IMG/VR virus record: IMGVR_UViG_2734482571_000007
Reading direction: 5' to 3' (one strand)
DNA length: 39,690 nucleotides
From: a virus
Taxonomy: Duplodnaviria > Heunggongvirae > Uroviricota > Caudoviricetes
This document shows, piece after piece, positions 29,916-33,751 of the stretch. Within the stretch, counting starts at the first letter, position 1, and each line of letters opens with the position of its first letter. The position numbers were made by a program, and so were the translations under genes. The notes beneath the pieces are model-generated. The model was not told where the DNA came from. It searched no databases and worked only from the letters and a program-made list of their open reading frames with translations.

Positions 29916-30155
29916 ATGTCAGATATAAAAAATGCACTTGATGTTGCCGCATTCACAATGGCTGGAAATCTTATGGTAACCCTGTTCGATAAGGGGCTGA
30001 TTTCCCGTGAGGAGGCAATACATATTATCAATCTCGCTCAAAAAAACTCTACCCCGGAAAATGCAGAAGATATCCAGGATGGCTCATATATTAATACCGA
30101 CTGGCATTTCGACAATCTCCGGGCCTGTATGGGGATTACCGCTGAAAAAGATTAA
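29916..30155 (+). CDS. Hypothetical protein (79 aa) on the opposite strand to the early operon, in an AT-rich island
   Basis: AAGGA ribosome-binding site; low GC relative to neighbours; 3' end overlaps the convergent gene by 20 nt. Could be a non-coding gap instead. Confidence 0.4.
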   Translation: MSDIKNALDVAAFTMAGNLMVTLFDKGLISREEAIHIINLAQKNSTPENAEDIQDGSYINTDWHFDNLRACMGITAEKD

Positions 30156-30424: not shown

Positions 30425-30568
30425 TTATTCATCCTCACAATTTATACATGCAGTGTCGTCGCCCATATCGCAGTGGTTACATTTTATCTCACCACAATGT
30501 GGGCACTCTTTCAGATACTCCGGGTCCTCATTTCCACAGGTGGGACATTCAACAATTTGCTCATCCAT
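30425..30568 (-). CDS. Small zinc-ribbon protein (47 aa, four CxxC pairs); not in the supplied ORF track
   Basis: MDEQIVECPTCGNEDPEYLKECPHCGEIKCNHCDMGDDTACINCEDE read from the minus strand. Confidence 0.5.
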   Translation of the reverse strand: MDEQIVECPTCGNEDPEYLKECPHCGEIKCNHCDMGDDTACINCEDE

Positions 30569-30893
30569 TATGTATCCCCTGTAATTCCGGCAAGGCCGAA
30601 AGATGGCACCAGTGCGTCACCTGTCCGTCCTCATCTTCAAGGCAGGCTCCGGTTTCTTCATCAATAAAAAAGCCTTCATACCCCATATGGCCGATGCGCA
30701 GTTCCTGTTGGTCACCATACTGAACAATCAGCACGACAGCCTCCATATCAGGCGGAAATGCGTCATCCAGTGAATGCCAGGGATAACCGCGCAAATCCCC
30801 GAAATAAACGCCGGTCAGCGTTCCGCCACAGAGCGGCATTCCGGCGGCACACACAAGAGGTTCATCTGATTCAACAAATAAGGTCGTTATCAT
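30561..30893 (-). CDS. Hypothetical early protein (110 aa), acidic
   Basis: ORF in the early operon with overlapping start/stop. Confidence 0.45.
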   Translation of the reverse strand: MITTLFVESDEPLVCAAGMPLCGGTLTGVYFGDLRGYPWHSLDDAFPPDMEAVVLIVQYGDQQELRIGHMGYEGFFIDEETGACLEDEDGQVTHWCHLSALPELQGIHNG

Positions 30894-31441
30894 GGCGTTA
30901 ACTCCCGTAATACAGCGTCCTCGGCAGTCCGGCGACGGTAATAAACTGCGTGAGCAGAATGTTCAGATATTCCAAACTTTTCGCCAATTTCCCGGAATGA
31001 CAGACGGCGTGGGTAATCGGAATCACGCAGCTCACGTATAAGACGTACATCATCATCAGATATGCGCGTGCCGGGGCGTAACTCTCCGCACTTTGTTAAT
31101 CCAGCACCAATCATTCCTGCCCGACATCTGACAGAATCTTTATTACGTCCGAGATATTCTCCCATTTGCTGGCAGGTCATTGTTCTGGCATTTTTTCGAA
31201 TAAACTTATCTTCATCAGGTGTAAATCTTGGGTGTTTATATTTCAGTAACTCCGGGTATGAACTGCGCAATACACCAGTCCGGTTATATACAGCCCAGAC
31301 AGTTCTTTTTATTCTGGCAGCAATATCCTTAACCGGGGTGGATGAATAAAGCGCAATCAGCAGCGCATCTTCTTCAGGTGTCCACGGACGGACATGAGCG
31401 GGGGCGCGACCTTTTAGTCCCATGGGTTGTAATTTCATCAT
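30890..31441 (-). CDS. Early protein with three internal ~45-aa repeats reminiscent of Myb/SANT helix-turn-helix
   Basis: Repeats begin WTPEEDALL, FTPDEDKFI and ISDDDVRLI, each followed by a basic helix. Confidence 0.5.
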   Translation of the reverse strand: MMKLQPMGLKGRAPAHVRPWTPEEDALLIALYSSTPVKDIAARIKRTVWAVYNRTGVLRSSYPELLKYKHPRFTPDEDKFIRKNARTMTCQQMGEYLGRNKDSVRCRAGMIGAGLTKCGELRPGTRISDDDVRLIRELRDSDYPRRLSFREIGEKFGISEHSAHAVYYRRRTAEDAVLRELTP

Positions 31442-31444
31442 GCA

Positions 31445-31960
31445 TCACCCCCTGACTCGCTTTTCAGCAGCATAAAACTCATCAGACAGTATTTCGGTCA
31501 TTTTCTGTTTTGCGGGTTTTACGCCGCACTGAAGGTAAATCACATCGTCAACGCAGAACCACTTCACAGGGCCAAACAGGATTGCCGAGAAATCAATACC
31601 CAACCAGAACAACAGCGCATCGGTTCTGGCATACGTGACGGGCGAATATTCACGCCACAGACTGTTCAGTTCATCAGAGGCAACACGCAGGGTTTTAGGG
31701 ATACGTGATGTGCGCGGTGTGCAGCTCCAGCCATTCGACGCAGTCGGTTTTCGCCATAAGTCGCGATGAAAAGGATATTTGTCCTCCGTAAAACGCAGTC
31801 CCTTAAAGTAAAATCCACTGATACCGGATACAAATACCGACCGGCACGCAACATTCAGCACGGCCTCAAGGCGTTTTGCCTCATCCTTAACTTTCTGGCA
31901 GTCCTGCTGGTATTTTTGCCACGCAGCCAGCGCGGAAGGGTTTGATGTTTTAAAGAACAT
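31445..31960 (-). CDS. Hypothetical early protein (171 aa)
   Basis: ORF in the early operon. Confidence 0.45.
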   Translation of the reverse strand: MFFKTSNPSALAAWQKYQQDCQKVKDEAKRLEAVLNVACRSVFVSGISGFYFKGLRFTEDKYPFHRDLWRKPTASNGWSCTPRTSRIPKTLRVASDELNSLWREYSPVTYARTDALLFWLGIDFSAILFGPVKWFCVDDVIYLQCGVKPAKQKMTEILSDEFYAAEKRVRG

Positions 31961-33180: not shown

Positions 33181-33474
33181 TTATTGCAGTGTGCCTGATG
33201 CTTTATGCACGCGGTGGCGTTTAATGATGGCATCCGCTCCAAAAGACTGTGCAGATGCCTGAAATTCCGCTGAGAGAAACTGAATAATTGCAGGACTGTG
33301 ATACTGGAGAATACTTGCATAAACGTCACAGAGTGACGTCGGCCTGTTATCCGTATCACGTTCTGTTTTCACATCCACTCCAATCTTTTCATGCACTTCA
33401 ACACAGTCATTGCCTGCCAACTTTTCGTCATGCGAAACATGATTAAATTCAAAAATAACGCGTACTTTGCTCAT
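33181..33474 (-). CDS. Small early protein, tandem paralogue A (starts MSKVRVIFEF)
   Basis: N-terminus parallels the adjacent ORF 33479..33751 (MSKVVRIIFEY). Confidence 0.5.
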   Translation of the reverse strand: MSKVRVIFEFNHVSHDEKLAGNDCVEVHEKIGVDVKTERDTDNRPTSLCDVYASILQYHSPAIIQFLSAEFQASAQSFGADAIIKRHRVHKASGTLQ

Positions 33475-33478
33475 GGAA

Positions 33479-33751
33479 TTACCCCTGTTGATTAAATTCA
33501 TTACCGTTAATAACCCCGGAAGCCATGCCTCTGTCTTTCATGAATGCACTGGCTTTCATTGCCACAAACTCTGCGAAGTTTCTGCTTTCTGCCAGCATAA
33601 CCACCCCAAAAATCATGGCGGGTCCATTATCTTTCTTCTTTATTCCGGTTGAACGTATATCCAGACTTACCCCTCTGTGCGTGCTGCCATCAGAGTTTTT
33701 GCAGATAACATCTTCCTTGTATTCGAAAATAATGCGTACGACTTTACTCAT
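33479..33751 (-). CDS. Small early protein, tandem paralogue B (starts MSKVVRIIFEY)
   Basis: See paralogue A. Confidence 0.5.
   Translation of the reverse strand: MSKVVRIIFEYKEDVICKNSDGSTHRGVSLDIRSTGIKKKDNGPAMIFGVVMLAESRNFAEFVAMKASAFMKDRGMASGVINGNEFNQQG

Follow-up and report, generated by a model that had tools for sequence, protein, structure and literature searches.

The core of the eukaryotic Myb/SANT domain carries three regularly spaced tryptophans (or aromatic residues), and bacterial GcrA combines one DNA-binding domain with a C-terminal domain that interacts with sigma-70. Phage T5 encodes D5 (T5.118, YP_006946.1), a DNA-binding protein which is needed for replication and late transcription and is involved in early shut-off, according to the annotation of the T5 record and to McCorquodale et al. 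(1979, J Virol 29:322) as cited in PMC12630848; a term search of the DRT4 paper found no mention of D5. We analyzed a stretch of 39,690 nucleotides (IMG/VR record IMGVR_UViG_2734482571_000007, referred to here as the window), which approximately represents a single Mu-like prophage whose genes lie on the minus strand, and report on the gene at positions 30890-31441 (minus strand, TGA stop codon at 30890-30892 included). An earlier interpretation of the DNA letters, termed here the sequence-only reading, had placed an open reading frame (ORF) of 183 residues at these positions, and the ORF list agrees exactly. The encoded 21-kDa protein, called the target in the following, is composed of two repeats of the Myb/SANT/GcrA type and one diverged helix-turn-helix, with a three-helix architecture common to all three units, and there is nothing unusual about it: it belongs with T5 D5 to a family that had been known and annotated before.

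The assignment to this family follows from profile comparisons. PHROG 323 ("transcriptional regulator, D5-like") matches the target at 5.3e-53, T5 D5 at 1.2e-71 and phage Mu gp9 (E8, NP_050613.1) at 5.2e-29, and from Shae_phiSM, a P2-like phage of Citrobacter, it also takes in a "DNA binding protein" (2.8e-33). Aligned by hhalign, the target family and T5 D5 share 163 columns (probability 97.3%, E=2.6e-11), with D5 residues 71-252 collinear with residues 17-183 of the target over all three units. The alignment with Mu gp9 (probability 98.3%, E=1.8e-14) spans units 2 and 3, and the first unit of Mu gp9 is homologous to unit 2 of the target. Judged by these profiles the target is homologous to T5 D5, to Mu gp9 and to early proteins of P2-like phages; the homology with D5 is remote and apparent at the profile level only, with no tblastn link at 1e-5. 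The sequence-only reading had regarded such a protein as uncommon in phage early regions, which does not hold: PHROG 323 includes Mu gp9 as well as T5 D5, and 903 phage records contain homologues of the latter. The identical protein in RefSeq (WP_000977059.1) already bears a SANT/Myb-like name, and a 100% match at the DNA level is annotated as "SANT/Myb-like DNA-binding domain-containing protein", so that both this name and the grouping with T5 D5 in PHROGs were known beforehand.

Like the target, T5 D5 is the product of an early gene, is annotated as a DNA-binding protein, and begins its first two units with PWTPE... and FTPDE..., which are followed by a sigma-region-4-like third unit. Unlike the target, it has 255 residues, approximately 70 of them extra at the N-terminus, and possesses neither the conserved N-terminal tail nor the K-x-G linker. 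D5 comes from a virulent phage, in which its gene is part of the replication module; the target belongs to the early operon of a Mu-like prophage. D5 is also annotated as required, whereas the target is absent from Mu itself and is therefore unlikely to be essential there. Mu gp9 shares with the target the membership in PHROG 323 and the location in the semi-essential early region of a transposable phage, but comprises two units in 99 residues, and its gene precedes gam instead of lying between gp12 and gp13. As the D5-like gene follows gp12 here and lies upstream of gam in Mu, members of the family have been swapped between early accessory slots. The slot of Mu gp9 (L002, 5482-5781) is occupied in the window by an unrelated phrog_2230 protein (33181-33501, minus strand).

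The repeat units of the target start with WTPEEDALL at residue 20, FTPDEDKFI at residue 73 and ISDDDVRLI at residue 127, which gives a period of 53-54 residues where approximately 45 had been proposed. If the target sequence alone is considered, the repeat is of marginal significance, with p=0.014 for units 1 and 2, 0.026 for units 2 and 3, and 0.24 for units 1 and 3 when local alignments are compared with 2000 shuffles. We repeated the comparison by hhalign with unit profiles from an alignment of 20 homologues (A1) and 100 column shuffles per pair. Unit 1 matched unit 2 with a score of 60.6 (P=2e-13; shuffles 9.1±2.2, maximum 18.8). The matches of unit 3 to unit 1 (17.6; shuffles 9.8±1.9, maximum 16.6) and to unit 2 (20.0; shuffles 9.7±2.0, maximum 15.8) are weak, score above every shuffle and keep the same helix-turn-helix register. 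By profile, units 1 and 2 are clearly homologous repeats, and unit 3 is weakly related to them; the three units noticed by the sequence-only reading are confirmed.

AlphaFold2 was run on alignment A1 (pLDDT 80.7, pTM 0.46) and predicts three three-helix bundles in a row, each with a helix-turn-helix fold, in agreement with the three consecutive units that had been noticed. The low pTM reflects, in this model, undefined orientations between the domains. The protein begins with an N-terminal tail that is predicted to be disordered (residues 1-16, MMKLQPMGLKGRAPAH, positions 31394-31441, minus strand, as are the units; pLDDT <50). Unit 1 (residues 17-67, positions 31241-31393) has predicted helices at 22-32, 37-43 and 48-59 and is a bundle of the Myb/SANT/GcrA-DNA-binding-domain type according to the model, to hhalign, to the alignment with c-Myb R2 and to a Pfam Myb match of 19.7 bits. 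Unit 2 (residues 68-121, positions 31079-31240; helices 75-84, 90-97 and 101-110) is by the model and the c-Myb R3 alignment a Myb-like bundle with the linker K117-x-G119. Unit 3 (residues 122-183, positions 30893-31078; helices 129-140, 149-156 and 160-169) is a helix-turn-helix of the sigma-70 region-4 or AsnC type, and its bundle is followed by an extra fourth helix at 173-181. The target is basic as a whole (pI 9.9, net charge about +12). A basic helix had been described after each of the three motifs; units 1 and 2 agree with this, their third helices each having a net charge of +2, and unit 3 differs in that the basic residues RRR 168-170 form the end of helix 3 and the positions just beyond.

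The resemblance to eukaryotic Myb/SANT repeats, claimed for all three units, was retained for two. Searched against PDB, the family profile finds c-Myb R2R3 at E=2e-6, with units 1 and 2 collinear with R2 and R3 (profile positions 18-108 on chain residues 60-150) and in an R2R3-like tandem spacing. Pfam Myb_DNA-binding is matched by 11 out of 20 family members at E<1e-3. The target itself stays below the cut-offs, with 19.7 bits against a gathering score of 24.4 for PF00249 and 16.5 against 22.9 bits for PF13921; the relatives P0024 (34.5 bits) and P0018 (26.0 bits) exceed the gathering score of PF00249. Common to the target and to eukaryotic Myb R2R3/SANT proteins (PF00249, PF13921) are tandem three-helix repeats of approximately 52 residues with W-[ST]-x-E-E-D opening helix 1, and the fold of the domain is present as a three-helix bundle of about 50 residues in which helices 2 and 3 form the helix-turn-helix. 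The target differs in its third unit, which is not Myb-like, and in its prokaryotic and viral context. Its sequence also deviates from the three-tryptophan signature: W20 is the only one kept, F73 (unit 2) and I127 (unit 3) take the equivalent position, and the second and third tryptophan positions of the c-Myb alignment are aliphatic, or Tyr in helix 3.

The nearest solved fold for units 1 and 2 is the DNA-binding domain of bacterial GcrA (Caulobacter, PDB 5yiu), and no sequence match to GcrA was found at E<=10, either with Pfam GcrA (PF07750) or with the GcrA PDB chain. Compared with GcrA, the target has three units of the DNA-binding type and lacks the sigma-70-interacting domain, unit 3 being followed by the single helix 173-181. 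The Tc3 transposase (1u78), Sulfolobus Cbp1 (2lvs) and the SNAPc4 Myb array (7xur) can be named as architectural analogues, for which relatedness to the target is not demonstrated (whole chain E>=0.08).

Unit 3 points to a different group of proteins. Its sequence matches Sigma70_r4 in 13 out of 20 family members (best E=9.5e-8), HTH_AsnC-type in 10 out of 20, and also HTH_10, and the matches to its fold are mostly sigma region 4. Both sequence and model bring it closer to a diverged helix-turn-helix of the sigma-region-4 or AsnC type, and it is not detectably a Myb repeat. The target is not a sigma-70 family member, as it contains no region 2 and its region-4-like match in unit 3 is weak (12.2 bits for Sigma70_r4; 12.3 against 42.9 bits for TIGR02937). 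T5 D5 does pass the gathering score of Sigma70_r4_2 (28.6 against 25.7 bits). One could therefore imagine a mimic of sigma region 4, in which unit 3 docks on RNA polymerase or competes with region 4 of sigma-70 while units 1 and 2 anchor the protein to DNA, so that host and early transcription are redirected, as has been said of D5. This would fit with an effect of D5 on early shut-off and late transcription, as given in the T5 annotation and in PMC12630848, and with helices 1 and 2 of unit 3, rather than the recognition helix, forming the most conserved surface of the family. However, a region-4-like helix-turn-helix is a generic fold that also occurs in the DNA-binding domains of LuxR, AsnC and transposases, and the target itself matches as weakly as stated above; we consider such a mimic rather improbable.

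Other alleles of the gene carry the name "AsnC family protein" in RefSeq and UniRef, and residues 130-164 match Pfam HTH_AsnC-type with 18.8 bits, which could be taken to mean that the target is a regulator of the AsnC/Lrp family. The match is below the gathering score of 27 bits, the Pfam matches include no family of AsnC effector domains, the model is all-helical, and residues 1-121 form two Myb-like units. The assignment to the AsnC family was refuted, since the C-terminal alpha/beta ligand-binding domain is absent and the likeness is confined to the helix-turn-helix. We regard an AsnC/Lrp-type regulator as hardly credible, and the misleading label on many alleles can be corrected.

Conservation is distributed unevenly over the family. 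Variability is lowest in the first two helices of unit 3, in the N-terminal tail and in the linker K117-x-G119, of which both named residues are unchanged throughout 24 distant homologues; W20 is invariant as well. The tail has a low column entropy of 0.86 in A1, with M2, L4, P6, G11, P14, A15 and H16 nearly invariant, and could represent a minor-groove arm or a docking peptide. The peptide M-x-L-x-P-M-G-x-x-G-x-x-P-A-H is kept in the Mu-like and P2-like homologues and absent from T5 D5 and Mu gp9. A metal site linking the tail to the K-C-G linker was considered and rejected: Cys13 is replaced by Ala in this allele, and homologues have C, Y, F, L or T at position 118. Helix 3, the presumed recognition helix, shows the highest entropy in every unit. 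This suggests, as far as sequence variation can tell, that different alleles recognize different sequences.

Taken together, we propose with somewhat better than even confidence that the target serves a Mu-like prophage as an accessory early protein and binds double-stranded DNA via three tandem helix-turn-helix modules. A DNA-binding role had been suggested by the sequence-only reading and would be the natural interpretation of a protein with the above isoelectric point and homology to the D5 DNA-binding protein. Binding as a monomer seems most likely because no oligomerization domain is visible. The third helix of each unit would be placed into successive major grooves, in a mode modelled on c-Myb R2R3 and the bipartite Tc3/Pax domains, and a long asymmetric site would be contacted. 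By analogy with T5 D5, the protein may modulate phage or host transcription and/or replication during early lytic growth. The semi-essential early region of Mu is dispensable, and the target would be dispensable like the rest of it. Different alleles would address different DNA targets through their variable third helices.

Several points weigh against this proposal. The literature on Myb-like proteins in Mu-like phages or prophages and on the Mu semi-essential early region yielded nothing relevant and no experiments on the target or on Mu gp9, and no DNA target was identifiable by computation. The role of T5 D5 need not transfer, as D5 is a remote homologue with approximately 70 extra N-terminal residues from a lytic phage without Mor and C. 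SANT-type domains can bind proteins instead of DNA, and the variability of helix 3 could mean that this helix is simply unconstrained. Foldseek with the whole model was not significant (best E=0.08), which is to be expected because the orientation between the domains is undefined.

A different hint arises from the P2-like homologues, which were found in six IMG/VR loci, in Salmonella and in other contigs, in the early operon upstream of replication gene A. A gene for a D12 Dam-type methyltransferase precedes the homologue, at a distance of 0-2 genes, in all P2-like prophage loci that were examined; in some of them both genes overlap or are translationally coupled, and the downstream neighbor is a C5 methylase in one locus and a PAPS-reductase-like gene in another. 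Together with the match to the GcrA fold, with a pair of Myb-like units inside a DNA methyltransferase ORF of Mycobacterium phage Bombitas, and with mom and com being carried by the Mu-like phage of the window, this would be compatible with a GcrA-like link to methylation: its DNA binding might depend on the state of N6-adenine methylation, or a DNA-modification gene of the phage might be under the control of the protein. Against such a link, none of the 42 Mu-like loci has a methylase near the target, the P2-like phage Shae_phiSM has none near its homologue and forms a counter-example, and GcrA is matched by fold and not by sequence. The P2-like loci are moreover interrelated, and the adjacency to Dam may be inherited synteny in one accessory-gene slot. 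We therefore judge the methylation link unlikely, and the recurrent neighborhood of DNA methyltransferases is flagged as a testable association.

The gene order shared by the P2-like loci L046-L051, L058-L060 and L062 is an ASCH-like gene, a small ORF, the D12 Dam-type methyltransferase, a DUF4406 gene or a 109-residue ORF, the D5-like gene, an optional Ash, C5-methylase or PAPS-reductase-like gene, and replication gene A. The Bombitas pair is located in gene 109 (L056, 1504-2931), at approximately residues 166-265 of the annotated DNA methyltransferase, and is homologous to units 1 and 2; in related phages the match falls into genes annotated as HNH endonuclease.

One may speculate, with considerable doubt, that the D5-like triple helix-turn-helix proteins are one cross-lineage family of phage early factors in virulent T5-like and in temperate Mu-like and P2-like phages, coupling the DNA methylation state, or RNA polymerase through the sigma-region-4-like third unit, to the switch from early transcription. 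If this were true, a programmable reader module would be recognizable by the adjacency to Dam in P2-like prophages, by its GcrA-like fold and by its hypervariable recognition helices, and the repeat seen in bacteria and phages could be a candidate for a prokaryotic relation of the eukaryotic Myb/SANT domain. The classic T5 D5 has relatives in temperate phages of the Mu-like and P2-like kinds, which would provide genetically easy systems for the study of this family.

The genomic setting of the target is that of a Mu early region. The gene is placed between Pe/ner-A-B-gam-gp11-gp12 and gp13-gp14-gemA-mor, all on one strand, and the amino acid identity to the Mu proteins is 57% for gam, 68% for gp11, 55% for gp12, 88% for gp13, 49% for gp14 and 46% for gemA. 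Neither the target nor the downstream ORF of 110 residues (phrog_6925, 30561-30893, minus strand) has a counterpart in Mu, and both thus form an extra block between gp12 and gp13. An identical copy of the gene is annotated in E. coli strain 600029; there a helix-turn-helix protein in the place of Mu ner, transposase A, B, several small ORFs, Gam and two hypothetical proteins precede the target, and more small ORFs, gp16/GemA, Mor and lysozyme follow it. The flank annotation of locus L001 was not transferred to the window because L001 differs outside the target gene (1163 mismatches).

A promoter-like site is located 5' of the ner-like gene, and a hairpin scan of the minus strand revealed no convincing terminator between Pe and the target; the target is therefore regarded as part of the early operon. 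The sole minus-strand hairpin in this interval is weak, with 3 G-C pairs, and lies inside B (34832-34808). The next hairpins on this strand, at 29887-29868 and 29328-29305, are both downstream of the target. They are GC-rich, are followed by T-runs and resemble intrinsic terminators; they lie on the coding strand, one just before gemA and the other between gemA and mor, and judged by their sequence could be partial terminators inside the early transcript.

The target is translationally coupled to its neighboring genes. Upstream, a Shine-Dalgarno-like AGGGGG (31448-31453, minus strand, read from the sequence) is placed 6 nucleotides 5' of the ATG and directly 5' of the TGA stop codon of the gp12-like gene (31445-31447). 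Downstream, the stop codon of the target overlaps the start codon of the 110-residue ORF as ATGA.

This coupled block, which is missing from Mu, raises the question whether the target could be a free-standing DNA-targeting module, a relic of or partner to a homing nuclease or another enzyme rather than a regulator, with the 110-residue protein as candidate partner. In other phages, genes for HNH endonucleases and methylases do contain PHROG and tblastn matches of the Myb-like pair, and the Shae_phiSM homologue has a weak Pfam HNH_repeat match. However, no nuclease or other domain match was obtained for the 110-residue protein with Pfam, PADLOC or otherwise. Its gene comes after the target in the majority of the Mu-like loci but is missing from several, and it is absent throughout from the P2-like loci, which keep the target; purifying selection acts along the full length of the target. 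We give little credence to the targeting module.

Among 51 related IMG/VR loci, 42 are Mu-like (L004-L045), and the target follows gp12 in all of them with upstream sequence present. The target occurs in two allele classes, with about 99% and about 73% amino acid identity, on backbones that are 91-98% identical. Its dS of 0.6-0.7 is approximately 3 times higher than that of the flanking genes (0.1-0.27), and its dN/dS is 0.23-0.28, about 0.25 between both classes. The target is thus a real gene under purifying selection. Diversifying selection was ruled out, since dS is raised as well and dN/dS is about 0.25; the sequence comparison indicates mosaic replacement of alleles under purifying selection. 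Both layouts of the gam-gp11 region occur with both alleles, and because of this mosaicism a linkage between an allele and its site is broken. The GC content of the target (47%, compared with 54% for the window) is uninformative with regard to a foreign origin, as the entire early accessory region ranges from 40% to 53%.

Among 5426 complete E. coli genomes, 200 contain the gene at the DNA level. The A1 profile was also used for an exhaustive HMM search, which returned 11,611 cluster representatives at E<=1e-3, including bacterial proteins of approximately 300 to 1,600 residues with up to 11 separate profile-matched stretches, one of which, from Propionibacteriaceae, is named SANT/Myb-like. 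Scanning genome contigs with the A1 profile gave no confirmed locus. P0028 (623 residues), P0030 (797 residues, from a Propionibacteriaceae metagenome-assembled genome), P0040 and P0081 consist almost wholly of tandem "WTxEEDxxL...LGRTxxAVxxRxxxLGL" units, with 3 to 9 profile-matched stretches each, and such matches number thousands in the exhaustive search.

Further observations concern the remainder of the window, for which Rfam returned zero matches over the whole length; PADLOC defence models gave no match at E<=0.1 for the target and four neighbors. The gp13-like protein of 47 residues (30425-30568, minus strand), with its 88% identity to Mu gp13, contains four CxxC pairs and a weak match to Pfam Zn_ribbon_LapB, and is by its sequence probably a double zinc ribbon. 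An ORF of 79 residues (phrog_32893, 29916-30155, plus strand) is oriented against the early operon, overlapping the gp14-like gene at its 3' end; its position and orientation are those of Mu gp15, and tblastn detects no similarity to Mu there. The com and mom genes overlap at the right end of the prophage (330-1266, minus strand), as in Mu, with matches to Pfam Zn_ribbon_Com (1.3e-12) and Pfam Mom (1.6e-77), respectively, and the listed Mom ORF has an N-terminal extension of approximately 95 residues ahead of the Mom domain.

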